Shown here: piece by piece, positions 12,919 to 35,915 of the stretch
How the letters are laid out: each line of letters begins with the position of its first letter
Numbering within the stretch: the first letter of the stretch is position 1
Position numbers and translations under genes: made by a program
Notes under the pieces: generated by a model
The model's database searches: none
What the model saw: only the letters and a program-made list of their open reading frames with translations
What the model was told of the DNA's origin: nothing
Assembly (NCBI RefSeq): GCF_988242995.1
Contig: NZ_OZ547043.1
DNA: 64,000 bases
Direction: 5' to 3' (one strand)

Positions 12919-14313
12919 CTACTCCCTCCGTTCCGGCAATCTAAAGTTAATCTTTTCCACATTAACAATATGGTGATTTATCCTGTCGATATCGACGGAG
13001 CTTTGCCCTCTTTCATTCACCGCATGAACATTTGCAAGAGATAGCAGTGTTTCTTTTTTCGCCATAAAGACGCCGCGAACGTCTTTGCGCATGTCAAAGT
13101 TCATGCTCAATGCTGGTCCAACAGAGGATTTCTGCATCACCTTGATATTACGCATAAAAAGGTGTTGCGGTTTATTGTGTAGCTCAAGCGAGGCACGCTT
13201 CATCTCAATGTTAGTCAGTGCCACAAAGGAGACAGCATTCCCGGCGGAGATTTGGATGCCGCGCAATTTATAAGCAAGGTGAGTGTTATCCAGTTGAATA
13301 TTATTCACTCGGAAATTTTGCGGTATCGAGAGATATTTGCCTTTAATTACCCCATAGCCAATTAACATCCCGGCGCTATTAATCATTTCAATATTATCAA
13401 TCACGAATTTGTCACAACCGTAAATAGCGACTGTGGCGTTATCAATGCCTGCTTTCTTACTGAAATCCGGCGTGATATTGCGGGCTTTGATATTACGAAT
13501 AACAAAATGTTTACCATTTTCAACATGTATCAACTGCCGACAATCCGATCCCGTGATATTCGCCACGACAAAGTTTTTCACTGCCTGATCTTCCGGGTAA
13601 TTATTATCGTAAGTGCTTCCCGCAAGGCCTATGCCAATGCCCCAGTTGATTTTGCCGTTAGTACAGTTGATGCGCTCGATGACATGGTCGGAGATCAAAA
13701 TATCACTGTCGTTAATTGCCACGTTCCATTCAATGGCGTCGCCCTGTAAGTCGCTGAACTTACAGTTGGTGATGTTGGCACCGATTATCTGGTTATGAAA
13801 TCCCTGGCGTAAGATGGCGTAATTAGCGTGGCTAACGGTCAGGTTATCGATGGTCAGGTTGCGCATGACCCGTTTGTTTTTGCCGCCGATATAAATCTGC
13901 GTTACCGGACCAAAGCCGCTCATCGCCAGCCCTTTGATGGTGCAGTCAGAGCCGCGCACATCCAGGGTGATGTTATGCATACTGCCGCCCTCCTCCCCTG
14001 TCACCTGGCTGCCGTCCTGTAAGATAAATCGCCCTCTGCCGTTGCCGCGCAGGCTTCCAAGGATGTGTAACGTTTTACCTGCAGGAATGAAGATGCCGGT
14101 GTTGATATTGTCGCAAACCAATCCGGCAGGCACGACGACCGTTTGCCCTTCGCTGAAGGCTTGTTTAAATGAGGCGATCCAGTCGTGAGGGTTGTAGTCG
14201 TTAATGTTAACGCTTTGTCGGGCGGGAAGTGCGCGAGCGAAAGGGGTATGGAGGAAGGCAAGGGCCGAGCTTGCCGTCAGGAAGGTGCGTCGGGAGAGTT
14301 TTTTAAATGGCAT
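12919..14313 (-). CDS. wcaM: Colanic acid biosynthesis protein WcaM
   Basis: 464 aa; [28 protein letters not shown] is an RR-type signal peptide; position and length fit WcaM. Confidence 0.9.
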
Positions 14314-14323
14314 ACGTTCTCCT

Positions 14324-15544
14324 CTATAAAGCCTGCAACAAGCTGGCGAGTTCTCGATTAATCACCTGCTGGTTAAAATCGTGTTCGACTTTTTCGCGAG
14401 CACGTTTGATAACCGGAGCCAGTTCGTTGGTGTCCAGTTGGCTAAATGCCGCCAGGCGTTGCGCCAGTGCGCGAGCATCGTTCTCAGGCACCAGCCAGCC
14501 GGATTTATCGGCCTCAACCAGTTCTGGTATTCCGCTATGCAGAGTTGAAACAACCGGAATGCCGACCGCCATTGCTTCCATTAGCGCCACCGGAATACCT
14601 TCCATATCACCATCCGCACCTGTAACCGATGGCAACAGGAAGACATCCGCGTCGTCGAGCATCGCTTTCACTTCATGGCTCGGTTTAAAGCCCGGCATCT
14701 CCACCACATCTTCCAGTTGATATTGTTCGATGAGGGTACGCAGGCGTCGTTCCCACGGGCCAATGCCGAGGATGCGATAGCGAAATGCCATGCCCTGCTC
14801 TTTCAACTGACGGCAGGCTTCGATCGCCACATGCAGGCCTTTTTTTTCAGTTAAGCGTGCGACGGAGATGATTTCCAGCGGCGTTGCGGGCGCTTTCACC
14901 GGACGCGGGCTAAAGCGCGTCATGTCCACGCCCATACGCGATACGGCGATTTTTTCTCTGGGGCAGCCCATTTTTTGCAGCCTTCCGGCCCACAAATCGC
15001 TTATCGGTAACATCAGGTCGCCACGGCGAAACAGTTGCTGATATTCGGGAGTGTAATGGTTGAGCACTTCCCGACTGGAAATATCAATGCCGTGGAAAAT
15101 AGTGGCAATTTTGCCGCGAATGACACCCAGTTCGCGTAGTTTTGCTGCGGTTACCCCCGCCGGGCCAAAATGAGCGATGAACACATCGGCGCGAAACGGT
15201 GTTGCGACCTGGCCGCAAATGGCAGACAAAATCAGGTTCCGCGACTCGGCACCATAGCGTTTGAGGTTGAGCGCCTGCCAGGTATTTTTACGATGAATGC
15301 CGCGCAAGGTCTGACTGGCGCGGTGGCGCAGCTTCGCCACTTTGCCCGTAGGTTCGTCCTGTAACCATCGGGTTCTGGCGGCAAGGTTGTATTTCGTCCA
15401 TGCCGCGTGGGTGTTTTGTGTGTCGCCTTTTTGCAGCGCGACAATCTCCACCTCAAAGCCCATATCAATAAACGCGGTAATTTGGTTGAGGACGAAGGTT
15501 TCCGACGACAGCGGAAATTTCAGTAAAAAGAAGCCAACCTTCAT
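14324..15544 (-). CDS. wcaL: Colanic acid glycosyltransferase WcaL (GT4)
   Basis: 406 aa; [22 protein letters not shown] start; stop overlaps the wcaK start. Confidence 0.9.
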
Positions 15545-17096: not shown

Positions 17097-18575
17097 TCAC
17101 CCCGCCCGTAAAAGCATTTTCATTTTTTCGCTGCGACAAAACTGACGCTTCACTTCCACCACCAGCGGATGGCGCGACAGCACAATCATCACCACAAACG
17201 CCAGCACGCCCGCGGCTATTTGCACCGCCAGCAGCATCCCCAGCGCCAGTTGCCCTTTCAGCACAATGCCCAGCGCATAACTAACCACCAGCGTCGGCAG
17301 CGAGAGGTAAAACGGCAGCCACAAACTCAGGATGTACTGGCGATAACTGGAACCAAGAACCGGTTTAATCATCACGAAGTAACTCAGAATGGTGTTGATA
17401 ATCTGCACCAGCAGGAAACCGAGCGTGACGCCGATTGCGCCCGCCATCTGCCCACCAATAACAATCGCCGGAATAAACAGAAAGGTTTTGAATACGTTGA
17501 ATTTAAAGCTGATGTCGACCCGCGCTTTCGCCATCAGCAGCGAACCAATCGGGTTACCCACGGAGCGCAGCAGACCCACAATACACAGCAATTGCAGCAC
17601 CGGAATAATGCTGTTCCACTTTTCGCCGAATACCAGCGGTACGAAGTTATTCGACACCACCATCAGCCCCAGCAGCGCCGGAAAGTTGATAATCCCCACC
17701 ACCGACAGCAGTTTGTAGAAGTTAATACGCAGCTTTTCGGTGTCGTCCTGAATTTTGGCAAACGCCGGAAACAACACACGGGTGATGATTGGGTTCAGCT
17801 TCATCGGTGGCACAACGGCCACGTTGTACGCCAGGTTGTACCCCCCTGCCACGCTCGCGCCGAGAATACGCGCCAGCACCAGCGTTGAAAGGTTGGTATT
17901 GAGATAGTTGATGATGCTGTCCGCCGTCAGCCAGGCACCAAAGCGTAAGTTCGGTGCCACCGACGCCAGCGAGAAATGCAGACCGGGGCGATAAATTTTG
18001 CGACCAAAGTAGCCAAACAGCAGCGTTCTTACCGCACTATTGACCAGATAACCGAGGATCGCGGTCATCGCCAGCGGCCAGAAATGGGCGCTAACCACCG
18101 TAAAAGTGAAGCCCGCCAGCACCGCGCTGGTTTCGATCATGCCGATTTTGTTGAACTCCAGTTCCTTCTGCATCAACGCGCGGAACTGCTGCCCGTGGGG
18201 GATCACCACAAACGCCAGCGACAATGTTTTAATCAACGGTGCCAGGTCCGGGTTGTTCAGCACGTCGCCGATGAGATCACTCAACAAAAACACCGCCACG
18301 CACACCACAAGCCCCAGCCCGACGTTCAGCCAGTACAACGTGGTGAGTTCAAGGTGGCTGATTTCTTTTCGCTGAATAATCGAGTTAGCGATACCAAAGT
18401 CAGAAAGCGTATCTGCCAGCGCGATGATCACCAGCGACACGGTAAGCAAACCGAACTGGTGGTTGTCGATAATCCGCGCCAGCACGGTCATCTGCACCAG
18501 CCCGAGGCCGATGATGATCACCGTGGCAATCGCCGACCACTTCGCGCCGCTGATGGTTTTTTCACGTAAGCTCAT
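17097..18575 (-). CDS. wzxC: Colanic acid repeat-unit flippase
   Basis: 492-aa polytopic membrane protein starting MSLREKTISGAKWSAIATVIIIGLGL. Confidence 0.9.
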   Translation of the reverse strand: MSLREKTISGAKWSAIATVIIIGLGLVQMTVLARIIDNHQFGLLTVSLVIIALADTLSDFGIANSIIQRKEISHLELTTLYWLNVGLGLVVCVAVFLLSDLIGDVLNNPDLAPLIKTLSLAFVVIPHGQQFRALMQKELEFNKIGMIETSAVLAGFTFTVVSAHFWPLAMTAILGYLVNSAVRTLLFGYFGRKIYRPGLHFSLASVAPNLRFGAWLTADSIINYLNTNLSTLVLARILGASVAGGYNLAYNVAVVPPMKLNPIITRVLFPAFAKIQDDTEKLRINFYKLLSVVGIINFPALLGLMVVSNNFVPLVFGEKWNSIIPVLQLLCIVGLLRSVGNPIGSLLMAKARVDISFKFNVFKTFLFIPAIVIGGQMAGAIGVTLGFLLVQIINTILSYFVMIKPVLGSSYRQYILSLWLPFYLSLPTLVVSYALGIVLKGQLALGMLLAVQIAAGVLAFVVMIVLSRHPLVVEVKRQFCRSEKMKMLLRAG

Positions 18576-18576
18576 A

Positions 18577-19971
18577 TCAATATGCCGCTTTGTTAACGAA
18601 GCCTTTGAATACCGTCAGGAAAACGATTTTGATATCGAACCAGACGCTCCATTCGCGGATGTACTCAAGGTCGAACTCGACGCGTTTTTCCATTTTCTCC
18701 AGCGTGTCGGTTTCGCCGCGCCAGCCATTAATCTGCGCCCAGCCGGTAATGCCCGGTTTCACCTTATGGCGCAGCATGTAGCCTTCAATGAGCTGGCGAT
18801 ACTGTTCGTTATGCGCCACCGCGTGCGGACGTGGACCCACAATCGACATCCCCCCGGTCAGCACATTGATAAACTGCGGCAGTTCATCCAGCGAGGTGCG
18901 GCGCAGAAAGTTCCCCACTTTGGTGACGCGCGGATCGTTCTGCGTCGCCTGAGTCACCACTTTGTCGTTCTCCATCACTTTCATAGAACGGAACTTCCAC
19001 ACTTTGATCGGCTTGCCATCCATGCCGTAGCGAGTCTGGCGGAAAATAACCGGCCCCGGTGAGCTCAGTTTCACCGCCAGCGCAATGCAGCACAGCACCG
19101 GGGAGATCAGCAGCAGGATAAGCGTCGCCAGCACAATGTCTTCTGCACGTTTTATCAGACGGTTAACCCCGGAAAGCGGCGTGTCATACAGCGGCACCAC
19201 CGGTACGCCGTTCATCTCTTCGATACGGGAATGGAGAATGTTGAAGGTAAAGACATCGGGGATCAGCAGCACCGAACAGGTGGTGTCCGCCAGTTGATGG
19301 ACCAGTTTTTTCACTCGCGCGCCGTCGCACATCTGCATCGCGATATAGACGTTATGAATCTTGCCCGCTTTCGCATCCTCGACCAGTTGTTGCAGATTGC
19401 CCGCCCAGTCGTTAGAAACGCCGCCCGGTTTTGGGTCGTGGTATACGCCCACCACTTCAAACCCTAACCACGGCTGATTACGGAAGCTCTCCATCAGCAT
19501 TTGTCCGGCGGCTAAATCCCCCGCCACCGCGACCATCCGCTTGTTATAGCCATGATTACGCAGCCAGCCCGCCCCAATGCGAATACATGAACGGCAAACC
19601 ACCAGTCCGATGCTGGTCAGCCCATACCACGCCAGCCAGATTTTCAGTTGCGTGTCGAAATCATTGTTGAACGCCACCAGTCCGGCGCTGAAAATCACGC
19701 TTAAGGTCCAGTTTTGTAGCAGCAGGGCAAATTCTGTCGCGGCCCGAACACCGCGCCATGAGCGATAAAAATCGGTGATGCCGCCCAGCATCTGGAACAC
19801 CACCAGCGTAATCAGCGCCACCAACAGGTGCATGTAGAGGAATGACAGTCCGCTGACTTCGCAAACCAGCCATAGCCCGGCAAACATGATGGTGATATCT
19901 GAAAAGCGTTGCACCATAGAGATTAACGATGCATTGGTTTTCGCTCGCTCGCGCTTTTTTAGATTTGTCAT
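18577..19971 (-). CDS. wcaJ: UDP-glucose:undecaprenyl-phosphate glucose-1-phosphate transferase
   Basis: 464 aa; N-terminal membrane domain and C-terminal sugar-transferase domain (PGITGWAQINGWRGETD). Confidence 0.9.
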   Translation of the reverse strand: MTNLKKRERAKTNASLISMVQRFSDITIMFAGLWLVCEVSGLSFLYMHLLVALITLVVFQMLGGITDFYRSWRGVRAATEFALLLQNWTLSVIFSAGLVAFNNDFDTQLKIWLAWYGLTSIGLVVCRSCIRIGAGWLRNHGYNKRMVAVAGDLAAGQMLMESFRNQPWLGFEVVGVYHDPKPGGVSNDWAGNLQQLVEDAKAGKIHNVYIAMQMCDGARVKKLVHQLADTTCSVLLIPDVFTFNILHSRIEEMNGVPVVPLYDTPLSGVNRLIKRAEDIVLATLILLLISPVLCCIALAVKLSSPGPVIFRQTRYGMDGKPIKVWKFRSMKVMENDKVVTQATQNDPRVTKVGNFLRRTSLDELPQFINVLTGGMSIVGPRPHAVAHNEQYRQLIEGYMLRHKVKPGITGWAQINGWRGETDTLEKMEKRVEFDLEYIREWSVWFDIKIVFLTVFKGFVNKAAY

Positions 19972-21669: not shown

Positions 21670-23106
21670 TTACACCCGTCCGTAGCGATCCGCGAAGCGC
21701 ACCACATCATCCTCTTCGAGATAAGAGCCGGAGCGCACTTCAATTAAATCGAGCGGAATTTTCCCCGGGTTTTCCAGGCAGTGCGTCGCCCCCAGCGGAA
21801 TATAAATGGACTCGTTTTCACCAAGCAGTTTGATATCACCGTCAATGGTGACTTTTGCCGTTCCCGCAACCACCACCCAGTGTTCCGCGCGGTGATGGTG
21901 CATCTGTACCGACAAGCCCTCGCCCGGTTTCACGGTGATGCGTTTCACCTGGTAGCGGTCGCCCGCGTCGATAGAGTCATATTTGCCCCACGGACGATAC
22001 ACTTCGCGATGCACCCGATGCTCATGGCGACCATCGGCTTTGATCTGCTCGACCACTTTTTTCACATCCTGCACCGCGTTACGGTCGGCAATCAGCACCG
22101 CATCTTTGGTCTGCACCACTACCAGATCTTTCACCCCGACGGTGGTGACCAGGCCAGATTCGGCGTACACATAGCTGTTTTCAGTTTTGTGATTAATCAC
22201 ATCTCCGTGGCAAACGTTGCCCTCGGCGGTGTGGGCGCTAATTTCCCATAATGAGGACCAGGAGCCGACATCGCTCCAGCCCGCATCCATCGGTACCACA
22301 ACGGCATCTGCCGTACGTTCCATGACCGCGTAATCCACCGACTCTTCCGGGCAGGCGAGAAACGCTTCTTCATCCACACGAATAAAATCAAGATCCGGAT
22401 CGACGGAGCTCATCGCTTTTTCACAGGCATCAAGAATATCCGGGCGATATTTTTTCAGTTCTTCGAGATAGCGTCCGGCGCGGAACAGGAACATGCCGCT
22501 GTTCCAGTAATATTCGCCGCTTGCCACATAGGCCTGAGCGGTTTCAAGATTCGGTTTTTCGACAAACTGCGCCACTTCAAAGGCCACCGTATCCTGCTCA
22601 CCCGCAGACACTTCACCGCGACGAATATAGCCATAACCGGTTTCTGGTAGATCCGGCACAATGCCAAAGGTCACCAGCTTGCCCGCTTCGGCATATGGCA
22701 TGGCATTACGCACGGCGGCACGGAACGCGTCTTCATCGGCAATCACATGATCCGCCGCCAATACCAGCATTAACGGGTCGCTCTCCGGGCTATGACGTTT
22801 TGCCGCCAGCGCCGCCAACGCAATGGCAGGTGCAGTGTTACGCCCTGCAGGTTCGAGAATAATGTTCTCGGTGAGTTTGTTCAGTTGACGCAGCTGTTCC
22901 GCGACAATAAAGCGGTGCTGCTCATTGCAAATCACCACCGGGCTTTCGCACTCCACGCCGTTTAGGCGGCAGATGGTGGTTTGCAGCATGGTGAGATCGC
23001 CTTTCAGGCATAAAAACTGCTTGGGATAAAGTACGCGGGAAAGCGGCCATAAGCGGCTACCGGAGCCACCTGCCATCACAACTGGATAGAGTTTCGACTG
23101 CGCCAT
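21670..23106 (-). CDS. cpsB: Mannose-1-phosphate guanylyltransferase
   Basis: 478 aa; [32 protein letters not shown] nucleotidyltransferase N-terminus with C-terminal cupin domain. Confidence 0.92.
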
Positions 23107-23108
23107 AA

Positions 23109-24332
23109 TTATCCCCGAATATCATTTATAAATTGACGTAACACGTTCTCTTTATCGAGCGTGCGTTCGGCATATTCACGTGCCACCGTGTTGTGTTTGG
23201 GCAGCAGGAGCGCCTGACGGATCCCCGCCACCAGCGCCTCGACCGATTCCGGTTCTACGCAAACCGCAATGCCCGGAAAGGTTTCGCAAAGCTGCCCCAG
23301 TTCTGTGTGGGCTTCTGCGGTAATCACCGCGTTACCGCCTACCGCCAGAATATTGGTCAGTTTCGACGGCAATACGGCATCTGCCGCGCCGCGTTTTTGC
23401 ACCACCAGATGGCAATCGCCCATCTTCAGCAGTGCGGGTAAAGCGTCATACGATTGCAGCGGGAAAAATTGCATGTTGCGCAGTCCACGCTGCTGCGCCA
23501 TTTTTTCCAGCCGCGCTTTGCCGCCGCCTTGCCCGACAATGGCAAAAATCAGCGGTTCATCGCGCAGGCGATCGGCAGCTTCAATAACGTTTTCCAGCCC
23601 CTGCTTTTCACCAATATTGCCGGAGTAAAGAATGATTTTTTTGTTATCCGGCAGGCCAAGCTGGTTACGAAGGGCATCAACATCGGCATCTGCAACATGC
23701 TGAAAACGGGCAATTTCCGACCAGTTGGGGAAGAAAATGACGTTTTCCGCCGCCACGCCTTTTTCGATGGCTTTATTCATCATCGAACGCGAAATCGTGG
23801 AGACGTTATCGACGTTATGCAATCCGCTACGTTCGAACGCCGTTGCCAGCTGTGCCACTTTGCCGCCTTTGCCTTTTCCGGCAAGGCCCAGCCCCAGCAT
23901 GGCGTCCACTTCGTAATCCTGAATATGCAGCACGGTACGCGCACCAGAGAGTTTCGCCAGCAGGCGCATTCCCGGCGTGCAAAACAGCGTTGGCACCACG
24001 CCGATAATGCGATCCGGCTTCCAGCGACGTTGCGCCATCAGAGGAAAGAAACTGCTGACGGCAAAACTGCTGAGATGTAACAGGCGTTTCAGGGTGCTCG
24101 GCTGTTTTGGCACGTACAGCGGGCAGCGCCACACCGTGGCGGCCCCCTCTTCTCGTTTGTAGCGCCAGGCGGAATAGTTCTCGCCCACCTGCCACTGCGG
24201 GTAGTAAGGCGGTGCGGTAATAACCCGCACCTCATGACCTTGTGCCGCCAGCCATTCCACCATCTCGCCGGTGTATTTGCCGATACCGGTTAACTCCGGC
24301 GAGTAGTTAATGCCGTAGACCAGTATTTTCAT
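23109..24332 (-). CDS. wcaI: Colanic acid glycosyltransferase WcaI (GT4)
   Basis: 407 aa; [39 protein letters not shown]. Confidence 0.9.
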
Positions 24333-24808
24333 AATCCGGGTACTCCGGCACGCTTCTCAGCGAGAAAATAGGCGCGGCTGTTAGCGTGAACATCGTTACT
24401 GGCGAGCAGCGCGTCCGGCGTCAGCCAGCGGTAATCGTCATGCTGCTCATCCGGCAGTATCAGATCTTCTTCAGCGACTCTGAAGCGAAAACCGAGCACC
24501 ACATAGTGAGTGGTGAAATCCGTGCCGGAGAAGTTATCGTCATAAAAGTGCTGCCAGACACCGTAAAACTGGCCTGCTGTTATCGGCAGACGCAGCCCCA
24601 GTTCCGCCATCGTCAGCCGCTCGAATGCGGCTTCCAGCGTTTCGTCTTTCTGCACGCGCCCTCCCGGCACAAACCAGTAACCCTGCGCCGGGCGGTTGGT
24701 TCTTTTGCCAAGCAGAAACTCGCCGCGACTGTTCTCGACAATAAAGTCGAGAGAGACAAGCGGGGTGGAGCGCACTACCGTGGCAAAGTCTTCCTGACGT
24801 AAAAACAT
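24329..24808 (-). CDS. gmm: GDP-mannose mannosyl hydrolase (Nudix)
   Basis: 159-160 aa; [24 protein letters not shown] start; Nudix box region present; overlaps wcaI stop. Confidence 0.9.
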
Positions 24809-24810
24809 CA

Positions 24811-25776
24811 TTACCCCCGAAAGCGGTCTTGATTCTCAAGGAACCACTGGTAAGTGCTGGCAAGCCCCGCTTCCAGTGAGATTTCGTGATACCAGCCAAG
24901 CTGATGCAGGCGCGTCACATCCAGCAGTTTGCGCGGCGTACCATCCGGTTTGCTGGCATCAAAAACCACCCGACCTTTGTAACCCACCACTTTGGCGATG
25001 GTTTGCGCCAGCTCGCGGATAGTGCAGTCAACGCCCGTGCCGACGTTAATGTGCGACAGCATCGGCTGGGTGTTCTCCAGCCAGACTTCGTGCGCCAGCT
25101 CCATGACATGAATGCTCGCCGCCACCATATCATCGACGTGCAGGAATTCACGCATCGGTGTACCGCTGCCCCATACCACCACGTCCGGTGCATTCTGTGC
25201 CGTCGCCTCGTGGAAGCGACGCAGCAATGCAGGGATCACATGCGAATTACTCGGGTGGAAGTTGTCATGCGGGCCATACAGGTTGGTCGGCATGACTGAG
25301 CGGTAATCGCGTCCGTACTGGCGGTTGTATGATTCGCACAGTTTGATCCCGGCGATTTTGGCAATGGCGTAAGGCTCGTTGGTCGGCTCCAGCGTGCCCT
25401 GCAATAACTCGCTTTCTGCCATCGGCTGTTTTGCCAGTTTCGGGTAGATACAGGACGATCCAAGAAACAGCAGTTTGTTCACGTCGTTCTGATGCGCGGC
25501 GTGAATGATGTTGCTCTCAATCATCATGTTCTGGTAGATGAAATCCGCCGGATAGGTGTTGTTGGCAACAATGCCGCCCACTTTCGCCGCCGCCAGATAG
25601 ACCTGGTCAATGCGTTCGCTGGCAAAGAAATCATGCACCGCGCGGCTGTCCAGCAGGTTCAGCTCGTCGCGGGTGCGTAATACCAGTTCCACATCACCGC
25701 GCTGTTCGAGCTGCCGCCTGATGGCAGAACCGACCATCCCACGATGGCCAGCGATAAAAATGCGTTGTTTACTCAT
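24811..25776 (-). CDS. fcl: GDP-L-fucose synthase
   Basis: 321 aa; [33 protein letters not shown] Rossmann N-terminus. Confidence 0.92.
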
Positions 25777-25778
25777 GC

Positions 25779-26900
25779 TTATGACTCCAGCGCGATCGCC
25801 ACGTCGTAGCCGTGAGATTTCAGCAGAGAGTGTTTTTTCGCCGCTTCGAGGTCATTAGCCACCATTTCAGACACCATCTCTCTGAGGGTGATTTCCGGTT
25901 TCCAGCCCAGTTTTTCGTGCGCTTTGGTCGGGTCGCCGAGCAGCGTTTCAACTTCTGCCGGACGGAAGTAACGCGGGTCAACGGCGATAATCACATCGCC
26001 CGGTTTAACGCCCGGCGCGTCATGCCCGGTGACGGAAACCACAATGCCCTTCTCTTCAACGCCCGTGCCTTCAAAGCGCAGTTTGATGCCCAGCTGTGCT
26101 GCCGCCATTTCCACGAACTGACGCACGGAGTACTGAACGCCGGTCGCGATAACGAAATCTTCCGGCTGTTCCTGTTGCAGCATCATCCACTGCATTTTTA
26201 CGTAGTCTTTGGCATGGCCCCAGTCACGCAGGGAATCCATATTGCCGAGGTACAGGCACGACTCCAGCCCCTGGGCGATATTGGCGATTGCGCGGGTGAT
26301 TTTGCGGGTAACGAAGGTTTCGCCGCGGCGCGGGGATTCATGGTTGAAGAGAATACCGTTACAGGCGTACATGCCGTAGGATTCGCGGTAGTTAACGGTG
26401 ATCCAGTAGGCGTACAGTTTGGCGACAGCATACGGAGAGCGTGGGTAGAACGGCGTGGTTTCTTTCTGCGGAATTTCCTGCACCAGACCATACAGTTCAG
26501 AGGTGGAAGCCTGATAGAAACGGGTTTTCTTTTCCAGACCGAGGAAGCGGATCGCCTCGAGCAGGCGCAGCGTACCCATCGCATCGACGTCTGCGGTATA
26601 TTCCGGTGACTCAAAAGAAACCGCAACGTGGCTCATTGCGCCCAGGTTGTAAACTTCATCCGGCTGCACTTCACGCAAAATGCGTGTCAGGTTGGAGGTA
26701 TCACTCAGGTCGCCATAATGCAGATGGAATTTCGGGTTGCAGGTGTGCGGATCCTGATAAATGTGATCCACGCGCTCGGTGTTGAATGACGATGCACGAC
26801 GCTTAATACCATGCACCTCGTAACCTTTTTCCAGCAGAAACTCTGCCAGGTAAGAACCGTCTTGTCCGGTTACACCGGTGATGAGAGCGACTTTTGACAT
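25779..26900 (-). CDS. gmd: GDP-mannose 4,6-dehydratase
   Basis: 373 aa; [48 protein letters not shown]. Confidence 0.95.
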
Positions 26901-28247: not shown

Positions 28248-29465
28248 TTACCTCGTAATATTTAACGCTTTTCGCAAAATAAACGGACAGACGATTAAAA
28301 ATGCATATTCCGGGCTAAATATCGAACCGGTAAAAAACAGCGATACCGGAGTAAAAAGATATAATTGCACGCGAAAATTGCGGTTATCACCAAAAGCGTT
28401 GATCATCATTTTTATCACTTTCCCCATGTACCACAGCGATAAAAACACTGCGAACCAGGAAAAATAAATAATCAGCAGATACAAACCATTGTCTATGGTT
28501 TTTCCGACATCCGCACCGTTAAATATTCCGAATGATGCGACGTATTCATAAAGTGAGCCAAATCTGACTACACCGTCAATATGGGTCAAAGAATAACCGA
28601 CCATCACCAGCGGACCGACAATACGATAATACGATGACGATCCTTCCGTACCTAAATCGCCCAGACGGGTGGAAATATAAGGAAACGCGATTACCACACC
28701 AACCAGGAATACAGCCAGAGAAATCAATGCCAACGGTAACTTTTTCTTAATCGCCTCTTTATTCAGATATTGAAATGCCCACTCCAGCAAATAAAACAGG
28801 ATAAAGGTCATAACCCCTGAAAACGATCCGGATAATATTATCCCTGCGAGAATCATAGCATCGGTTTTAGGCGTTTTGATACCAAACTGTTTGATGCTGA
28901 GCCAAATTGAGATTAATGCCAGAGCGAAAAATGCCGGTTCGAAATAAAGTGCTGTCGTGCGCTTGCCGCCGAATTTAATGAAATTCAGTACATAGCTGTT
29001 GCTGTAAATCAGATATTTCGAAATCGACTCCATAATACTGCTGCCACCGGTGAGGATAATTTGCGCCATCTCCACCGCCGCCAGCGCCACCACCAGCCCG
29101 ACCACCAGATAAAAGAAACGTAATATCTTGCGATGGTTGTGTGGCGAAATCGTTTTAAAGCGAATACTCCACACCATGCCAATAATGATCACAATATAGA
29201 CAAACAGCATGGTTGATGTGACGTATTTACTGGCATCCAACGACTGACCAAACAGATAGTTGAACGCCGTGAGTCCCGCACCAATCCCTAAGGCAATCAT
29301 CAATTTTTTAACGCTGATGCGTTCTAAAAACAGCAGTAACAAGACAGGTAAAAAAGTGACGATAGTGATGGGGAAACTTTCACCAAGCTGGGCGATTTTG
29401 ACGTTAACCAGCAGGTAGATCAGCGGCAGCAGCAGGTAGCTACAGATTCTGATAGAAGTTGACAT
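28248..29465 (-). CDS. wcaD: Colanic acid polymerase
   Basis: Conserved start [31 protein letters not shown] at the internal Met (ORF track extends to 29537); polytopic membrane protein of about 405 aa. Confidence 0.85.
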
Positions 29466-30657
29466 ACTCCTCCAGCATCTGTTGTCCACTGTAGGCGGCG
29501 CGGCTGCGTTGGCTGAACTCAGCCAGCGTGGTACCAAATATCGCCTGCGCGATTTCCGGTTTGCTTAACTGGACCAGTTGCAGCACGTCTTCTTCGCTGA
29601 CAGTTTTACCTCCGGATTTTTGCAGCACTTCCCGCGCCGCATCGCTATGGGTGGCGATCACCGGCACACCAATCGATAGCGCCTCACACAAAATCAGCGG
29701 GTAGTTATCGACACGAGAACTGAACACCAGCGCATCCATCTGATTGAGCGCGCTCATCAACTTGCGCTTGTCAGTTTCAAAGCCGTGATTAACCACGTTG
29801 CCAGCGGTGAACGGCGAGAACTTACCAAAGGTATGCAGTTCGATTTTGTCGCCCAGCGCCATCATCTCACGCACCAGTTGCTGGTTAGTTTTGCCGTCGT
29901 AACGCAGGTCATGCGCCACCACCGCGATTTTCGGCTTGCCCTGGGTTTCGCGCACCGGAGGCAGATCCGCCAGAATCGCTTCGGTTGCCATATCAATGCC
30001 ATTATTGATAATCCGGCAACGCCCTGGACCGTACAGGCTATTGAAAGCATCAGCCACATGCTGGCTGGGGGAAATAAACTGACAGCCCAGCGCCAGCATC
30101 TCACGAAATAACTGGCGTTTGCCCGCCACCAGCTGGTGCGCGCGATCAATCTTCACCGGCGGATAGTTATTTAAGGTCGGGCATTTCTGGCAACCCGTTT
30201 TCCAGCCTTCGCAACCGTCGGTAAAGGCGCAGCGCCCGGTTACACTCCAGTGATCGTGCAGCGTCCAGACCACAGTGACGTCCGGTTTATGGTTTTTCAC
30301 TTTTTCGCAAAAGCGCACCACGCTCTTAAGATTTAGCCAGTAGCTGTGCAGCACATGAAAATGCAGGACCACCGGACCCGGTGTGCGAGTAATGGTGCGA
30401 TATAACTCATTGAAATTGCCAAACAGATCGCGATTAAACAGACGAAACAGTGCAATGTTCGCCATCGCGATCATCCGCGGCGTATGTTTGATTACCTGCG
30501 GATAGTTTTGATGGCTGACGCTCTCTTTGCCGCCTTTGCCGTAACCGTAGACAAAATGTGACGCCAGCCCCTGTTGCAGCGCACGCTGATGGAGATCTAA
30601 CGCCACACCTGCTGCCCCGCCTTCCGCCAGTCGCACATTAAATTGCAAAATATTCAT
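29440..30657 (-). CDS. wcaC: Colanic acid glycosyltransferase WcaC (GT4)
   Basis: 405 aa; MNILQFNVRLAEGGAAGVALDLHQRALQQG. Confidence 0.9.
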   Translation of the reverse strand: MNILQFNVRLAEGGAAGVALDLHQRALQQGLASHFVYGYGKGGKESVSHQNYPQVIKHTPRMIAMANIALFRLFNRDLFGNFNELYRTITRTPGPVVLHFHVLHSYWLNLKSVVRFCEKVKNHKPDVTVVWTLHDHWSVTGRCAFTDGCEGWKTGCQKCPTLNNYPPVKIDRAHQLVAGKRQLFREMLALGCQFISPSQHVADAFNSLYGPGRCRIINNGIDMATEAILADLPPVRETQGKPKIAVVAHDLRYDGKTNQQLVREMMALGDKIELHTFGKFSPFTAGNVVNHGFETDKRKLMSALNQMDALVFSSRVDNYPLILCEALSIGVPVIATHSDAAREVLQKSGGKTVSEEDVLQLVQLSKPEIAQAIFGTTLAEFSQRSRAAYSGQQMLEEYVNFYQNL

Positions 30658-31142
30658 TTAATTACCTTCACTCGCGCTTTTTCTCCCACCACCAGCGCGT
30701 TGTCCGGGACAGAGTCGAGCACCACGCTGCCCGCACCCACGGTGACGTTGTTACCAAGCGTGATATCACCAAGAATAATGACGTTGGCACCGAGTTCGAC
30801 GCCGTTGCCAATGTGTGGACATGCCATGTTATCGGCACCACGATTGCCGATAGTGACGCCGTGGCGAATGGTGAAATCATCCCCCGCCACCACGTTTTTA
30901 TTGATCACTACGGCGTAACCGTGATGGATAGTAAAGCGGCGGCCAATGGTCGCGGCGGCCTGGATTTCATAACCGAAAAAGCATTCGGTGATAATGCGAT
31001 ACAGCACCAGCAGCGGGGCCGCCCACAGATTGTTGAGGACGTTCTTTTTGCGCCACACCGAACAAAAATGAGCGACGCGATAGGCAAGTACCATGCAGCA
31101 CGGGCGTAAACTCCAGCTGTTGGCGCGCAGATCTTCCAGCAT
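30654..31142 (-). CDS. wcaB: Colanic acid acetyltransferase WcaB
   Basis: 162 aa; MLEDLRANSWSLRPCCMVLAYRVAHFCSVW with hexapeptide repeats. Confidence 0.9.
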   Translation of the reverse strand: MLEDLRANSWSLRPCCMVLAYRVAHFCSVWRKKNVLNNLWAAPLLVLYRIITECFFGYEIQAAATIGRRFTIHHGYAVVINKNVVAGDDFTIRHGVTIGNRGADNMACPHIGNGVELGANVIILGDITLGNNVTVGAGSVVLDSVPDNALVVGEKARVKVIK

Positions 31143-31144
31143 CT

Positions 31145-31984
31145 TTAGCGCCCCCGAATACCATCAGCCAGACGTTTGCCGTTACGCACCGACAGCAGCG
31201 TCAACAAGGTGCGCCAGGTCATACGTTTATTGCGGATCTGGTAGAGGGTAAACAGCTGATATTTTTTACTGGCGCGGTCGAATTTGTCTTTGTGCTTGCG
31301 GTAAAAGTGGAAGTACCCGGAGAATTTTTTCGGTGACGAGGTGATCTGCATTTCACCGTGATTGATATGCAGGATCTGCGTCGCCTCTTCCACTTTCCAC
31401 GGTTCGCCATACTCCACCACCATCCGCAGGAAGATGTCGTAATCCTGTGCCGCTTTCAGTTCGGTATCGAACAAACACTCTTTGAAACGCCACGCCCAGG
31501 TAAAGACCTGATTGCCAATGATATTGCGTTTATAGAACAGGCGGCGTGAATACGGCGATTTGGGATACAGCGGCAAACTTGCTGGTTGGGAATAGACTTC
31601 GCCCTGGCAAACGTAGTCGTTAGCGTACAAAAAGGCGTGAGTGACCAGTTGCTGTTTATGGGCGAGGAAGACGCTCAGACGGTTGGGTGTCCATTCATCA
31701 TCATCATCGATCCCGGTGATGTATTCCCCTTGCGCCAGCATAATCGCCTGGTTACGTACCGCGCACGCCCCGCTGTTAATATCGTTGTGAATGTAGGTAA
31801 TACGCGGATCGTTGAGGGCGGTGACGTACTGTTGCAGTTGTTCCCAGGAGGTGGAGCAATCATCCACGATGATCATCTCCCAGTTGCTGTAGTCCTGGCG
31901 CAGGACCGATTTTATCGCCCGAATCGCCAGTTGTTGGCGGTTCCAGGTTGGCATATAGATTGAGATCAGCGGATTATCTTTCAT
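31145..31984 (-). CDS. wcaA: Colanic acid glycosyltransferase WcaA (GT2)
   Basis: 279 aa; MKDNPLISIYMPTWNRQQLAIRAIKSVLRQDYSNWEMIIVDDCS. Confidence 0.9.
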   Translation of the reverse strand: MKDNPLISIYMPTWNRQQLAIRAIKSVLRQDYSNWEMIIVDDCSTSWEQLQQYVTALNDPRITYIHNDINSGACAVRNQAIMLAQGEYITGIDDDDEWTPNRLSVFLAHKQQLVTHAFLYANDYVCQGEVYSQPASLPLYPKSPYSRRLFYKRNIIGNQVFTWAWRFKECLFDTELKAAQDYDIFLRMVVEYGEPWKVEEATQILHINHGEMQITSSPKKFSGYFHFYRKHKDKFDRASKKYQLFTLYQIRNKRMTWRTLLTLLSVRNGKRLADGIRGR

Positions 31985-32046
31985 AGGTTGTTCTCCCGGA
32001 GTGTCGAGATGTTCTGCCGGTTTATAAGCTTGTTTACGGGTTCTGT

Positions 32047-32151: not shown

Positions 32152-32161
32152 GCGGATGTCG

Positions 32162-34324
32162 TTATTTCGCATCCGACTTATATTCGTATTCGTAATAGCC
32201 ATAATCCTGATACGCGCTGGCGCGGCGGAAGATGGAGTTCAGAATCACCCCTTTCACCGGAATACCGTTTTGCTCAAAGCGGCTCAGACTGGTTTCCACT
32301 TCTTTCAAGGTGTTGACCGCATAACGCGCCACCATTAACGTGGTTCCGACATGACGACCAACAATTGCCGCATCGGTCACTGCCAGAATCGGCGGCGTAT
32401 CAATCAACACCAGGTCATAGTTTTTACTCGCCCAGTTCACCAGTTCGGCAAAGCGTTCGCTCATCAACAGTTCAGAAGGATTTGGCGGCACCTGACCGCG
32501 CGGGATCAGGTCAAATTTGGCAATAGAGGTCGGTTTAGCAGCGGTAGTAATATCGCCCTGACCAATCAGAATTTCCGACAGGCCATTAACGTTATTAGTG
32601 CCCAGCAGCTCGTGGGTGTAGCCTTTGCGCATATCGCAGTCGATCAACAACACCCGTTTATTGGTCTGGCTGATCACCGCCGCCAGGTTGGCGCAGACAA
32701 AGGTTTTACCGATTGACGGGCTAACCCCGGTCATCATCAACACATTGTTCTGTGCCTGCATCATCGCGAAGTGCAAACTGGTACGCAGACTGCGGATGGC
32801 TTCAATCGCCAGATCGGTTGGATTCCCCATCGCCAGTAGCTGGCTCTGTTTATAGCGTTTAATCCCTTTGATGGTTTTGACGCTATCGCGCGCTTTCTGC
32901 CATTCCGACAGCGGGATGCTGGCATAGACGCTGATACCGTGTTCTTCCAGCACCTGCGGGCTTTCGATGCCGCGATTAAACAACGAGCGCAGCAGCACAC
33001 CCACGATAGAAAGCATCAGGCCAAGGATAATCGCGCCGAGGATAATCAGCCCTTTCTTCGGTTTCAGCACGCCAGGCTGGGTGATTGCCGGGTCAACAAT
33101 GCGCACATCGCCGACGGTGCTGGCTTCGGTGATTTTCAGCTCCTGCTCTTTATTCAGCAGTTGCATATAGACCTGCTGACCAGACTCGACATCGCGGGTC
33201 AGGCGCACAATCTCCTGCTGGGTTTTCGGCATCGCCGTTACGCGACCGTTAAGTTTGGCTTTCTCTTCTTCCAGCGCCTGACGTTTCTCCAGCAGCGTGC
33301 GGTACGCCGGGTGAACTTTGGTGTACAGCTTGGAGATTTCCGCCTCTTTAAAGGTCAGTTCGTTCAACTGCGCGTCGATGTTCACCATCGAATCGAGCAC
33401 CGCTTTCGCTTCCAGCGGCAGATCAACAGAATCTTTATCCTGACGGAAGGCATTCAGTTTGTTTTCGGCAACATCGAGGCGGCTACGTACTTCCGGTAAC
33501 TGTTGCGCGAGGAAAGCGAGGCTTTTCGACGCTTCCGCCGATTTGCGCTCAATATTTTGTTCCTGATAGTTACGGGCGATGCTGTTAAGAATGTCGCGGA
33601 TCTGTTCGCGATCTTCACCGGTATAAGTCAGGCTCAGTACGCCTGCGTCTTTGCCGTTCTCCGTTACCGTCAGGCTGTTTTGCAGTTGGTTGATCATCCC
33701 CAACGTGGAGTATTTGGTGACGGCAAACTCACTGCCCGGGCGGGCGTGAATGGCTTCAACCATCAGCGTGACGCCTTCTTTTTTCAGCATCTGGCCCGCT
33801 TGCCCACGGGCGCTAAAGCCGCCATCACTGCTCAGGGTGTAGTTTTTATTGTCCAGCACATTAAGCGTAAACACCTGGTCCGCCATCTCTTTCGGGCGGT
33901 TAAAGGTGGTCACTTTCACCGTCTCGTTCTGACGTCCCATCAAACGATCCCAGCCCGCACCGAAAATCGGGAACGTGTTTTTGCTCACCGCAATATCGAG
34001 GTCGAGATCGTCCACCGTTTTACCAAGCACCAGGCGCGAACGAATCAACTGGATCTCGGCGTCCGATGCAGGCGGTTTGTTGGCTAATGCCGAACCAATG
34101 TCCTGCACTAACGAATTGCCGCTGTTTTGCTCGATTTGTACCAGTGCGTCGGCACTATAAATCGGCGTGGCGAAGAAGGTGTAAACCACGGCACAGAGGG
34201 CAAATACAGCGGTGATGCCAATCACCCACCAGCGCGCTTCAATGACGGTGCCGACCAGGCGACCAATATCGATTTCATCACTGCCCGTTACCGGAGCGGC
34301 ATGTTGTTTTACTTTTTCTGTCAT
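32162..34324 (-). CDS. wzc: Tyrosine autokinase / polysaccharide co-polymerase
   Basis: Conserved start MTEKVKQHAAPVTGSDEIDIGRLVGTV at the internal Met (ORF track starts 12 codons upstream); Walker A region VSPSIGKT; C-terminal Tyr-rich tail YQDYGYYEYEYKSDAK. Confidence 0.92.
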   Translation of the reverse strand: MTEKVKQHAAPVTGSDEIDIGRLVGTVIEARWWVIGITAVFALCAVVYTFFATPIYSADALVQIEQNSGNSLVQDIGSALANKPPASDAEIQLIRSRLVLGKTVDDLDLDIAVSKNTFPIFGAGWDRLMGRQNETVKVTTFNRPKEMADQVFTLNVLDNKNYTLSSDGGFSARGQAGQMLKKEGVTLMVEAIHARPGSEFAVTKYSTLGMINQLQNSLTVTENGKDAGVLSLTYTGEDREQIRDILNSIARNYQEQNIERKSAEASKSLAFLAQQLPEVRSRLDVAENKLNAFRQDKDSVDLPLEAKAVLDSMVNIDAQLNELTFKEAEISKLYTKVHPAYRTLLEKRQALEEEKAKLNGRVTAMPKTQQEIVRLTRDVESGQQVYMQLLNKEQELKITEASTVGDVRIVDPAITQPGVLKPKKGLIILGAIILGLMLSIVGVLLRSLFNRGIESPQVLEEHGISVYASIPLSEWQKARDSVKTIKGIKRYKQSQLLAMGNPTDLAIEAIRSLRTSLHFAMMQAQNNVLMMTGVSPSIGKTFVCANLAAVISQTNKRVLLIDCDMRKGYTHELLGTNNVNGLSEILIGQGDITTAAKPTSIAKFDLIPRGQVPPNPSELLMSERFAELVNWASKNYDLVLIDTPPILAVTDAAIVGRHVGTTLMVARYAVNTLKEVETSLSRFEQNGIPVKGVILNSIFRRASAYQDYGYYEYEYKSDAK

Positions 34325-34326
34325 TC

Positions 34327-34770
34327 TTATACCTGCTCTGCGTTCAATGCCTGCGCCCACTGGCGGGCAGACCGTTCAAGTAATGTGTACACCGCTGCAA
34401 ACGTTTCCCGGCTTTTGCGATACGGATCGGGGATTTCACATTCGTTATCCCAGTGACCAAACAGCATCACTTTGCCGCGCATCTCAGGTGCCATCTCGCA
34501 TAAGCGTTCGATATGGCGCTTTTCCATGGTCAAAATCAGGTCGTAGTTGCGACACAGACGGCGGCTGATTTGACGGGCACAGTGACCTTCCAGAGACAGT
34601 TGATGTTCTGCGGCGACGCTGATAGCGGTAGGATCAGCGCCCTTACCGACCAGCGCGCCGAGTCCAGCGGACTCCACTTTCAGCTCCGGGTGATAACGTT
34701 GCAGTAAGCGTTCCGCCGTCGGGGAACGGCAAATATTGCCGACACAGACAACTAAGATGTTGTTAAACAT
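34327..34770 (-). CDS. wzb: Low-molecular-weight protein-tyrosine phosphatase
   Basis: 147 aa; MFNNILVVCVGNICRSPTAERLL contains the CX5R P-loop (CVGNICRS). Confidence 0.92.
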   Translation of the reverse strand: MFNNILVVCVGNICRSPTAERLLQRYHPELKVESAGLGALVGKGADPTAISVAAEHQLSLEGHCARQISRRLCRNYDLILTMEKRHIERLCEMAPEMRGKVMLFGHWDNECEIPDPYRKSRETFAAVYTLLERSARQWAQALNAEQV

Positions 34771-34775
34771 GACGA

Positions 34776-35915
34776 TTACCAGTTATGAATGTCGCTGGCT
34801 GTATCCGTCATGTAACGGACACCGCTAATAGTTGGCAGCAACTGATTGATCAGACGGTTCCAGCGGGAAACCGGGGCGGTGGTGACATACACCACGTCAT
34901 AAGGTTGCAGGCGGAATTCTGTCGCCATCACCAGCGACGTGGCATCGGACATATCCAGCTGGTAGATATTGGCAATCTTGCCGTTACGCCCGCCCTCGCC
35001 TTTCAGCGGACGAATGACAAAGATGCCGCTGGCGTTGGAGGTGGTCATGTCGATGCCTTCAGCATTGCCCAGGGCTTCGGTCAGGGTCATGCCGCTAAAG
35101 TCCATTTTCAGGGTGCTCTGTTTCTTCACTTCACCCATCACAAATACTTTCAGATCATCATTACGTGGCACGTAGAGAATATCGCCGGGGTAAAGCAGGC
35201 GATTCTGGTTGAGGTCGCCGTTTTGCATCAGCGCCTGCAAAGAAATGCGTTCTTCACGACCATTGTGTGTTAACACCACGTTGCGCCAGTCAGCGGTGTC
35301 GGTCAGGCCACCTGCGGCGTTGATGGCGTCGAGAATAGTCAGTGGCACGTTGGTGATCGCCTGTTGACCGGATTTATTCACCTGACCGGAGATATAGGCC
35401 TTTTGTGAGCGGAAGGCGGCGATATTAACGTCCACCTGCGGGTCAGCGATGTACGTCGCTAAGCGCCCGGTAATATCACTGCGGATTTCAGCGAGCGTTT
35501 TCCCGACTACGTGAACCTTGCCGATATACGGGTAGAACATAGTGCCGTCAGGCTGTACCCAGTTGCCGGTGTCGCTGGAGCTGCGGTACTGACCAGCTGG
35601 CGTGGTGAGTTCCGGGTGATCCCAGACGGTGACATTAAGAACGTCGCCCGGCCCGACGCGATACTGGTAATTCGCGATCTCACTTTCCAGCGTCATATTG
35701 GGGCGCGCTACATTCGGGCGTGGGCGTAATTGGTCAATCAGGCGCGGGGTCAACGGATAAACATTCACCATTTTGTCGAGATCGAAATCAGCGTCCTGCT
35801 GTTTGATGACGTCTTTGCCCATCGTCGACATATTGCTGCCCGGAAGTACTGTGCAACCGCTTATCAAGGTTACTGACACCAATAATGGCATCAATTTCAT
35901 TTTGGATTTCATCAT
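34776..35915 (-). CDS. wza: Outer-membrane polysaccharide export lipoprotein
   Basis: 379 aa; [21 protein letters not shown] lipoprotein signal with lipobox LISGC. Confidence 0.92.

Follow-up and report, generated by a model that had tools for sequence, protein, structure and literature searches.

The tight gene junctions of the wca, yeg and mdt-bae regions are real and conserved across genera, yet ordinary, because overlapping or nearly touching reading frames are the commonest, textbook arrangement of abutting genes in bacterial operons. In the window, by which is meant the whole 64,000-nucleotide stretch of DNA analysed here (contig NZ_OZ547043.1 of RefSeq assembly GCF_988242995.1), they are best read as the normal intra-operon junctions of three long Escherichia coli operons, wza-wcaM, yegL-yegK-yegI and mdtABCD-baeSR, at which translational coupling is likely, a joint reading to which we assign a probability of roughly 0.7. 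The phenomenon itself is already known.

Gene starts were taken from RefSeq annotation transferred onto the window from three E. coli genomes, and all 38 transferred coding sequences translate cleanly. With these RefSeq-consistent starts, all nine junctions named in the first-pass annotation (wcaL/wcaK, wcaI/gmm, gmm/fcl, wcaC/wcaB, wzc/wzb, yegL/yegK, mdtA/mdtB, mdtD/baeS and baeS/baeR) are indeed tight, each being an overlap or a gap of at most 2 nt. Their description as ATGA-type overlaps or short gaps is right for the spacing and needs amending at yegL/yegK, which is GTGA and not ATGA; likewise, the interval given for them, 12919-35915, takes in the wca cluster but not the yeg junctions (49379-50140) or those of mdt-bae (53257-62275). 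Beyond the nine there are eight further tight junctions: yegK>yegI, mdtB>mdtC, mdtC>mdtD, wcaJ>wzxC, wcaI>cpsB, gmd>fcl, wcaA>wcaB and wcaC>wcaD. From galF to yegP, 17 of 30 same-strand neighbour pairs are spaced between -8 and +6 nt (negative values denote overlaps), compared with 24% of pairs (707/2,987) in the E. coli genome as a whole (PMC10666635), an excess with a binomial p of 1e-4. Spacing lies between -4 and +2 at 16 junctions, and only wcaC>wcaD, at -26, falls outside the range of about -4 to +3 that is typical of coupled pairs.

The colanic acid cluster lies on the minus strand with all of its coding sequences intact, in the order wza-wzb-wzc-wcaABCDEF-gmd-fcl-gmm-wcaI-cpsBG-wcaJ-wzxC-wcaKLM, and its junctions were compared across 80 Enterobacteriaceae wca loci. 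Three ATGA overlaps of -4 are almost invariant: wcaK/wcaL (15541..15544; -4 in 63/63 related loci, with a Shine-Dalgarno (SD) dG of -11.4 kcal/mol), wcaB/wcaC (30654..30657; 63/64) and gmm/wcaI (24329..24332; 72/79, comprising 69 ATGA and 3 GTGA). In two further junctions a TAA stop is followed by a 2-nt gap and an ATG, namely gmd/fcl (25774..25781; +2 or +3 in 72/73 loci) and fcl/gmm (TAAtgATG, 24806..24813; +2 or +3 in 79/79). Taking the first ATG of TAATGATG, one codon upstream and in frame, as the gmm start would bring the latter spacing to -1; a start codon occurs there in only 9/80 related loci, however, and the MFLRQ start is kept in 80/80. The 26-nt overlap between the 3' end of wcaC and the 5' end of wcaD (29440..29465) is retained at -26 in 65/66 loci, is near-invariant in sequence and carries a strong SD, GGAGGAG (dG -9.3 kcal/mol).

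Other junctions in the cluster vary more. A TAA stop, a 2-nt gap and an ATG (+2) also make up wcaA/wcaB (31140..31147; -1 in 43 loci of other genera and +2 in 20) and, as placed by the transferred annotation, wzb/wzc (34322..34329; +2 in 41, -4 in 14, -1 in 4 and +1 in 1) and wcaI/cpsB (23104..23111; +3 in 38, -4 in 18, -1 in 8, +2 in 7 and +1 in 2), so that across the 80 loci these three switch among -4, -1, +1, +2 and +3 only. At wcaJ/wzxC (18573..18579) the TGA stop and the ATG are separated by 1 nt, and the spacing elsewhere is +9 (27 loci), +1 (20) or +10/+11; the transferred annotation also places the TAA of wza 5 nt before the ATG of wzb (34768..34778, +5). The loose spacers of the same loci (wzc>wcaA, cpsB>cpsG, cpsG>wcaJ and wzxC>wcaK), by contrast, are anywhere between about 14 and more than 300 nt long. 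A scan of the wca operon from 16500 to 36400 found no promoter-like or terminator-like sites above shuffled sequence, and the overlapping junctions leave no space for either element between the two reading frames.

The mdtABCD-baeSR junctions, on the plus strand, behave similarly. The mdtA stop and mdtB start share TGATG (53257..53261) at a spacing of -1 that recurs in 5/5 other genera, and the mdtB TAA directly abuts the mdtC GTG (56379..56384), a spacing of 0 also found in 5/5, the mdtC start having the strongest SD of the set (dG -12.0 kcal/mol). The TAA of mdtC abuts the ATG of mdtD (59457..59462, 0; -4, +1, +2, +2 and -1 in the other genera), mdtD and baeS overlap by ATGA according to the transferred annotation (60872..60875, -4; elsewhere -4 four times, as three GTGA and one ATGA, and -1 once), and baeS and baeR overlap by ATGA (62272..62275) at the -4 seen in 5/5 other genera. 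All of these junctions stay within -4 to +2 in the five other genera. In the yeg trio, on the minus strand, yegL/yegK is a GTGA overlap of -4 (50137..50140) that is GTGA in 5/5 distant modules, and YegK homologues have a uniform length of 253 aa. The transferred annotation gives yegK (pphC)/yegI as an ATGA overlap of -4 (49379..49382); in the open reading frame (ORF) list yegI begins 9 nt further upstream, at a GTG, giving -13, and distant homologous modules show +6, +7, -4, -13 and -4.

These spacings depend on the choice of start codons, and it has to be considered whether the overlaps are artefacts of annotation, the true starts lying either further downstream, with no overlap, or upstream, at the longer starts of the ORF list. 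Automated annotation does prefer starts close to upstream stops. Nevertheless, this possibility is very improbable, as the aligned starts of orthologues, family profiles, YegH homologues and a BaeR peptide all favour the trimmed starts. All nine ORFs that the first-pass annotation had considered 5'-overextended (galF, cpsG, wcaD, wzc, yegH, udk, yegD, mdtA and yegP) are longer than the annotated genes, as are two more, gmm (1 codon longer) and yegI (3 codons longer); in all, the longest-ORF track over-extends 11/38 genes in the window, which is an artefact of its rule of taking the first ATG, GTG or TTG after a stop and not biology. The trimmed starts agree with orthologue N-termini and with family profiles, the comparison by which they were to be judged: for galF, cpsG, wcaD, wzc and yegD the NCBIfam profile starts on the trimmed Met, for udk and mdtA it starts 1-3 residues from it, residue 1 of YegH homologues aligns with query residue 23, and the trimmed Met of YegP is also where a homologue from Shewanella begins. 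Among the ten tight wca starts, nine have a start codon at aligned residue 1 in at least 94% of the 63-80 orthologous loci compared, and counts for individual genes include 63/63 for wcaL, 66/68 for wcaC, 77/79 for wcaI, 64/65 for wzc, 66/67 for wcaD and 72/72 for cpsG. The exception is wcaB, which starts one codon upstream in 41/64 loci, making the junction -1 instead of +2 and still tight. An N-terminal peptide of BaeR appears among the E. coli K-12 data of the PMC13245402 supplement; among the experimental N-termini listed in the TRAINSPOTTER supplement, BaeR is the only entry from the region, the entries listed including none for udk, yegD, galF, yegP, mdtA, b2042, b2065, b2066, b2069, b2078 or b2080.

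Two further observations could be taken to favour the long forms. A start codon occurs at the long-ORF position in 62/64 loci for wzc and in 48/66 for wcaD, but frame-specific substitution analysis traces this conservation to wzb and wcaC, whose coding frames overlap the extensions: substitutions in both extensions follow the frame of the upstream gene only, the wcaD extension has a translation identity of 0.65 in its own frame compared with 0.83 in that of wcaC, and its variability is concentrated at wcaC third positions, although the signal for wzc is weak. The structure of YegP (PDB 2K8E) represents the long ORF of 123 aa, which is discounted as a native N-terminus since the construct was designed from an old annotation. 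The long cpsG start, a TTG at 21525, falls within an algC RNA motif (Rfam RF02929; 21482..21531, minus strand; score 72.8 bits, gathering score 33.8) that directly precedes the cpsG ATG (21477), and an upstream in-frame start is absent from 30/72 loci. Moreover, the SDs of the long starts are poorer than those of the trimmed starts in 10/11 cases. The RefSeq-style starts in the region are sound.

Overlap alone is no proof of coupling, and of the proposal that widespread overlaps indicate coupled translation, what is borne out is the description of the sequence and the trimming of the starts. By analogy with published tests on other gene pairs, coupling at the tight junctions is the standard reading and a likely one. 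According to this reading, a ribosome completing the upstream gene would open the local mRNA and terminate beside the downstream start, where that same ribosome, or a nearby one caught by the embedded SD, could initiate, such that downstream output would follow upstream output. Spacings of -4 and -1 are the most frequent in E. coli, and coupling is most efficient at -4 to +3 nt, decaying by about +20 nt (PMC6728339, PMC10666635; reviewed in PMC12548453). In reporter tests of native E. coli -4 pairs, four of five were coupled, the other, bioBF, initiating de novo (PMC6728339). Ribosome profiling speaks against re-initiation being the principal route in E. coli, since depleting ribosome recycling factor (RRF) left coupling unchanged across the genome (PMC7538156). 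A systematic study found coupling to be absent at an overlap of the size seen in wcaC/wcaD (reviewed in PMC12548453), and wcaD probably initiates de novo at its own strong SD. Among the papers searched, none reports a test of any of these junctions or treats coupling in wca or mdt-bae, the sole related remark concerning the paralogous gfc operon.

An unlikely, if credible, alternative is that genome compaction, and the ease with which NTGA and TAATG junctions arise, produced the overlaps as a side effect, downstream genes initiating independently and spacing having no regulatory effect. SD strength speaks to both sides of this question. The 17 tight starts have a median SD complementarity of -6.1 kcal/mol, compared with -2.2 for 1,627 internal ATG/GTG decoys (p=1.8e-8), and a dG of -5 kcal/mol or lower is reached by 13/17 of them (76%) and by 10% of decoys, the four weak cases being wzxC (-1.9), yegI (-2.2), mdtD (-3.0) and baeR (-3.6). 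Most of the tight starts have their SD embedded in the 3' end of the upstream ORF, and in strength tight and other starts do not differ significantly (p=0.22); the 13 strong SDs are as good as those of starts with their own leaders, and any tight start with a good SD could initiate independently. The de novo start of bioBF despite its -4 overlap and the indifference of coupling to RRF depletion also suit this alternative, as does the view that the abundance of -4 probably reflects easy evolution (PMC12548453), in which case inertia could account for part of the conservation. Against it stand the four of five tested E. coli pairs that are coupled and the retention of tight junctions at -4 to +3 in 60-80 species of many genera while adjacent loose spacers change freely. 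Predicted structure is also relaxed around starts that have their own leaders and initiate independently (-4.9 kcal/mol) but not around tight starts (-9.4; p=0.011), and the higher predicted stability at the latter fits dependence on an upstream ribosome, although it may merely reflect position within coding sequence, random coding windows (-10.3 kcal/mol) resembling the tight starts. Because tight spacing is conserved across genera while loose spacers drift, and because the SDs are embedded upstream, the evidence fits selection for tight spacing, and coupling remains the favoured reading.

A more specific proposal concerns yegL/yegK, where a predicted 14-bp mRNA hairpin with GUGA in its loop would force coupling by hiding the ribosome-binding region of yegK until translation of yegL opens the stem. 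For the window and for K-12 and O158 strains the predicted minimum free energy is -22.6 to -25.3 kcal/mol, five G-U pairs in the stem make the hairpin RNA-specific, and 14/14 pairs are retained in E. coli-like metagenomic copies. Even so, the proposal is improbable: dinucleotide shuffles give it a z-score of only -1.8, and the arms are set by conserved residues, GW(T/A)SV* in YegL and xWR(L/V)V in YegK. A family sample was drawn as 30 metagenomic copies with a pattern that leaves synonymous sites free, and in the 23 distinct sequences aligned pairing occurs in 76.4% of cells, compared with 76.3% in column shuffles, covariation is no higher than in the control and the stem is absent from RNAalifold output. 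With pairing equal to the shuffle control and no covariation, the hairpin is rejected as a family-wide coupling device. That within the E. coli lineage this predicted G-U-rich structure makes YegK synthesis strictly dependent on YegL translation is a shade less probable again; were it true, the hairpin would lock two proteins of a mobile vWA-phosphatase-kinase module into an obligatory stoichiometry.

These results have little importance beyond annotation hygiene. They do provide a clean example of tight junctions held at -4 to +3 nt across the Enterobacteriaceae while loose spacers of the same operon drift. Coupling, if true, would help to account for the balanced production of MdtB/MdtC, of BaeS/BaeR, of Wzb/Wzc and of the GDP-fucose enzymes, and would confirm an expectation and reveal nothing new.

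In comparison with known systems, the window matches the colanic acid (wca/cps) cluster of E. coli K-12 in gene order and content, has a JUMPstart element upstream of wza as K-12 does, and shares the spacing of each tight junction with MG1655. Three loose spacers, on the other hand, are shorter in K-12 (54 compared with 135 nt at cpsG-wcaJ, 104 with 192 at cpsB-cpsG and 92 with 177 at wzc-wcaA), and identity of the window to any complete E. coli genome is at most 98.8%. All five mdtABCD-baeSR spacings (-1, 0, 0, -4, -4) match those of O158:H23, and those from mdtA to mdtD, the extent of the region compared, match K-12; among Enterobacteriaceae, mdtC>mdtD (0/-4/+1/+2/-1) and mdtD>baeS (-4/-1) vary by genus. 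The yegL-yegK-yegI trio, in which K-12 carries yegJ inserted between yegK and yegI, travels as a unit between unrelated genomic settings. Anantharaman, Iyer and Aravind (2012) reportedly described, as the 'TerY-P triad', three-gene modules that encode a Ser/Thr kinase together with a vWA protein and a PP2C phosphatase, and the yeg trio has in common with this triad the vWA and PP2C genes (Pfam assigns vWA to yegL and PP2C_2 to yegK) and joint travel. It differs at the third gene, as YegI of the window has no Pfam kinase domain match, only a weak match to HHH_5, and is called a kinase solely through its RefSeq name. Finally, the junctions of the window share with known coupled pairs (-4 NTGA and -1 TRATG; PMC6728339, PMC10666635, PMC12548453) the spacings of -4, -1 and 0 to +3, an SD embedded in the upstream ORF, conserved spacing and, in MdtB/MdtC, BaeS/BaeR, Wzb/Wzc and Gmd/Fcl, products that interact or act in one pathway, and the two sets show no structural difference, coupling in the window being read from spacing and SD.

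The window, which E. coli chromosomes match from end to end, carries an O-antigen cluster (1-11.5 kb) followed by galF, the minus-strand colanic acid wca cluster (12919-35915), then yegH, asmA, dcd, udk, dgcE, alkA and yegD in that order, minus-strand yegI-yegK(pphC)-yegL (47442-50796), three Sib/Ibs loci between yegL and mdtA, and plus-strand mdtABCD-baeSR (52012-62994), after which come yegP and yegQ. RefSeq CDS coordinates were carried over from E. coli strains 52F4, O158:H23 and K-12, and each of the 38 CDS so transferred is of the right length in the window, with a start codon and one terminal stop. Spacings are given as nucleotides of stop/start overlap (negative) or gap (positive), and junctions from -4 to +2 nt in the window, together with the -26 wcaC>wcaD overlap, are termed tight.

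Between galF and yegP, neighbouring genes on the same strand form 30 pairs, and the junction sequence of each was taken from the window. The first-pass annotation had named nine junctions of the wca, yeg and mdt-bae operons as ATGA-type overlaps or 1-3-nt gaps, and all nine proved tight in the extracted sequences, with three caveats: yegL/yegK is GTGA rather than ATGA; fcl/gmm has a 2-nt gap when the conserved start is used and a 1-nt overlap only with an extra upstream ATG; and the interval assigned to them, 12919-35915, holds wca alone, the yeg and mdt-bae junctions lying at 49-63 kb. Another eight tight junctions were found, namely yegK>yegI (-4, ATGA at 49379-49382), mdtB>mdtC and mdtC>mdtD (both 0), wcaJ>wzxC (+1), wcaI>cpsB, gmd>fcl and wcaA>wcaB (each +2), and the 26-nt wcaC/wcaD overlap. 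Spacings of -8 to +6 nt occur in 17 of the 30 pairs, compared with 707 of 2,987 (24%) across the E. coli genome (Huber et al., PMC10666635), an excess (binomial p=1e-4) that is expected for a window dominated by three long operons. The O45-type O-antigen genes (4608-8905, minus strand) have spacings of -35, -8, -8, -14 and +1 by the S88 annotation, their overlaps being longer than those of wca.

Conservation of the wca junctions was followed in 80 loci obtained from one Gmm scan of species-representative genomes (Enterobacter, Citrobacter, Leclercia, Lelliottia, Kosakonia, Kluyvera, Salmonella, Franconibacter, Siccibacter and other genera), on which window proteins were placed by tblastn and run to the stop, the start codon closest to aligned residue 1 being chosen. 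Some junctions vary little: wcaK>wcaL is -4 in 63/63 loci, wcaB>wcaC -4 in 63/64, gmm>wcaI -4 in 72/79 and wcaC>wcaD -26 in 65/66 with almost invariant sequence, while gmd>fcl and fcl>gmm are +2 or +3 in 72/73 and 79/79. Others switch between short forms, including wzb>wzc (+2 in 41 loci, -4 in 14, -1 in four, +1 in one), wcaA>wcaB (-1 in 43, +2 in 20) and wcaI>cpsB (+3 in 38, -4 in 18, -1 in eight, +2 in seven, +1 in two). Across the same loci the loose junctions wzc>wcaA, cpsB>cpsG, cpsG>wcaJ, wzxC>wcaK, wcaD>wcaE, wcaE>wcaF and wcaF>gmd take dozens of lengths; thus it is tightness itself that is conserved, whereas its exact form changes. The cpsG-wcaJ, cpsB-cpsG and wzc-wcaA spacers are 80-90 nt longer in the window than in K-12, and the 275-nt wzxC-wcaK spacer contains a match to REP-derived naRNA4 (Rfam RF02564; 16941-17011, plus strand). 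JUMPstart elements lie on the minus strand upstream of wza (36094-36132) and upstream of rfbB, where the O-antigen operon starts (11554-11592).

The mdt-bae junctions were compared in five other loci (a Salmonella/Citrobacter-type sequence, Yokenella, Enterobacter, Trabulsiella and Leclercia), in all of which mdtA>mdtB is -1, mdtB>mdtC 0 and baeS>baeR -4; mdtD>baeS is -1 in one and -4 in the remaining four, and mdtC>mdtD takes -4, +1, +2, +2 and -1. In yeg-module homologues from Serratia fonticola, Piscinibacter, Klebsiella spallanzanii, Pseudaquabacterium and E. marmotae, yegL>yegK is GTGA in all five, and yegK>yegI is, in the same order, +6, +7, -4, -13 and -4. These genes encode a vWA protein, a PP2C phosphatase and a putative kinase, although no Pfam match to a kinase domain was obtained in YegI. 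In K-12 an opposite-strand yegJ sits between yegK and yegI (K-12 locus L003, 38986-39712), and YegI is a 648-aa protein with an N-terminus unlike that in the window. Copies of the trio with 60-65% identity are found in Serratia, Klebsiella and two Burkholderiales genera (loci L090-L093), adjoining an integrase, IS66 transposase or BrxR regulator, and five other enterobacterial genera lack it at this position; the three genes thus seem to form a mobile module. The yegL-mdtA interval also holds three tandem SIB antitoxin RNAs (Rfam RF00113, 139-150 bits; 50943-51091, 51278-51420 and 51606-51748, plus strand), at a place where K-12 has two (sibA, sibB) and three Ibs toxins are annotated in O158:H23.

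At yegL/yegK (50093-50126, minus strand), a 14-bp stem that includes five G-U pairs is predicted by RNAfold (-22.6 to -25.3 kcal/mol), with GUGA in the loop. Among 30 metagenomic copies fetched by a pattern that left synonymous sites free, E. coli-like copies hold 14/14 stem pairs and distant copies just 7-13. In the 23 distinct sequences pairing equals the shuffle control (76.4 vs 76.3%), covariation does not exceed that of the control and the stem fails to reappear in the RNAalifold prediction; against shuffles the z-score is only -1.8, and the arms are set by conserved residues of both YegL and YegK. The hairpin, stable in E. coli but without family-wide covariation, is therefore not claimed as a functional element.

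Nine ORFs (galF, cpsG, wcaD, wzc, yegH, udk, yegD, mdtA and yegP) had been called 5'-overextended and trimmed to conserved starts. All nine are indeed longer in the ORF list than in annotation, as are gmm and yegI; the list takes the first ATG/GTG/TTG after a stop, so the over-extension is mechanical. The trimming is right. The trimmed Met is where NCBIfam equivalog profiles start in galF, cpsG, wcaD, wzc and yegD, and for udk and mdtA they start within 1-3 residues of it; gene calls put YegD at 450 aa in five other genera and E. marmotae, and MdtA at 411-416 aa in those five and at 415 aa in E. marmotae. Orthologue alignment agrees, since YegH relatives overwhelmingly align query residue 23 to their own residue 1 (1.84 billion representative proteins searched) and a Shewanella YegP homologue (2K49) has the trimmed Met as its first residue. 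The NMR structure of E. coli YegP (2K8E) used the long 123-residue ORF (63135-63506, plus strand), which exceeds the current 110-aa annotation by 13 residues and is also longer than expected from the Shewanella start. The long cpsG start falls within an algC RNA motif, and 30/72 loci have no upstream in-frame start. That motif (Rfam RF02929, 72.8 bits; 21482-21531, minus strand), directly 5' of the cpsG start in the 192-nt cpsB-cpsG spacer, suggests that phosphomannomutase is controlled separately inside the wca operon. Long-position start codons of wzc and wcaD are widespread across loci, but were rejected as starts, substitutions there following the overlapping wzb and wcaC frames (clearly for wcaD, weakly for wzc). 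The Shine-Dalgarno (SD) sequence is better at the trimmed start in 10/11 cases. A 12-residue BaeR N-terminal peptide, the sole direct experimental N-terminus retrieved for genes of this region, falls at the annotated ATG in the ATGA overlap (PMC13245402 supplement).

Over window positions 1-13407, which comprise the O-antigen cluster, galF and the 3' portion of wcaM, identity to E. coli S88 (whose cluster is the S88 variant of O45) is 100%; the first mismatch is at 13408 and identity thereafter is ~97.7%, which puts a recombination breakpoint within wcaM. The remainder of the window is no more than 98.8% identical to any complete E. coli genome among 5,426. The yegH-asmA spacer is an insertion hot spot, being 67 nt in the window (38157-38223), 273 nt in K-12 and ~451 nt in 52F4 and O158:H23, and carrying a RelE/ParE-type toxin-antitoxin pair in S88.

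Hybridisation energy to the 16S 3' end within 16 nt upstream has a median of -6.1 kcal/mol at the 17 tight starts, -5.5 at the other 21 and -2.2 at 1,627 internal ATG/GTG decoys (tight vs decoy p=1.8e-8); tight starts thus hold real SDs embedded in upstream coding sequence. Folding from -30 to +17 is more stable at tight than at own-leader starts (medians -9.4 vs -4.9, p=0.011), which is compatible with a need for the upstream ribosome to open the site; it may, however, reflect only the coding context, random coding windows folding at -10.3, near the tight-start median.

Tight spacing in these operons is correct as observed and non-random, and translational coupling, its standard reading, probably holds for most junctions from -4 to +3. 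Spacings of -4 and -1 are by far the commonest for unidirectional pairs in E. coli and prokaryotes overall (PMC10666635; review PMC12548453), coupling efficiency peaks at -4 to +3 nt and fades within about 20-40 nt (review PMC12548453), and reporter assays showed coupling for four of five native -4 pairs of E. coli, bioBF being the exception (PMC6728339). Two mechanisms are candidates, in which the terminating ribosome re-initiates or structure is unmasked; RRF depletion was without effect on coupling (PMC7538156). A systematic study saw no coupling at a -25 overlap (review PMC12548453); as the conserved -26 wcaC/wcaD junction has an SD among the strongest of the set, wcaD probably initiates de novo. 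Our literature search found no paper testing coupling in wca or mdt-bae. Stop/start overlap is a thoroughly known phenomenon, and for the paralogous gfc capsule operon coupling has been proposed in the same way, from 1-4-bp overlaps.
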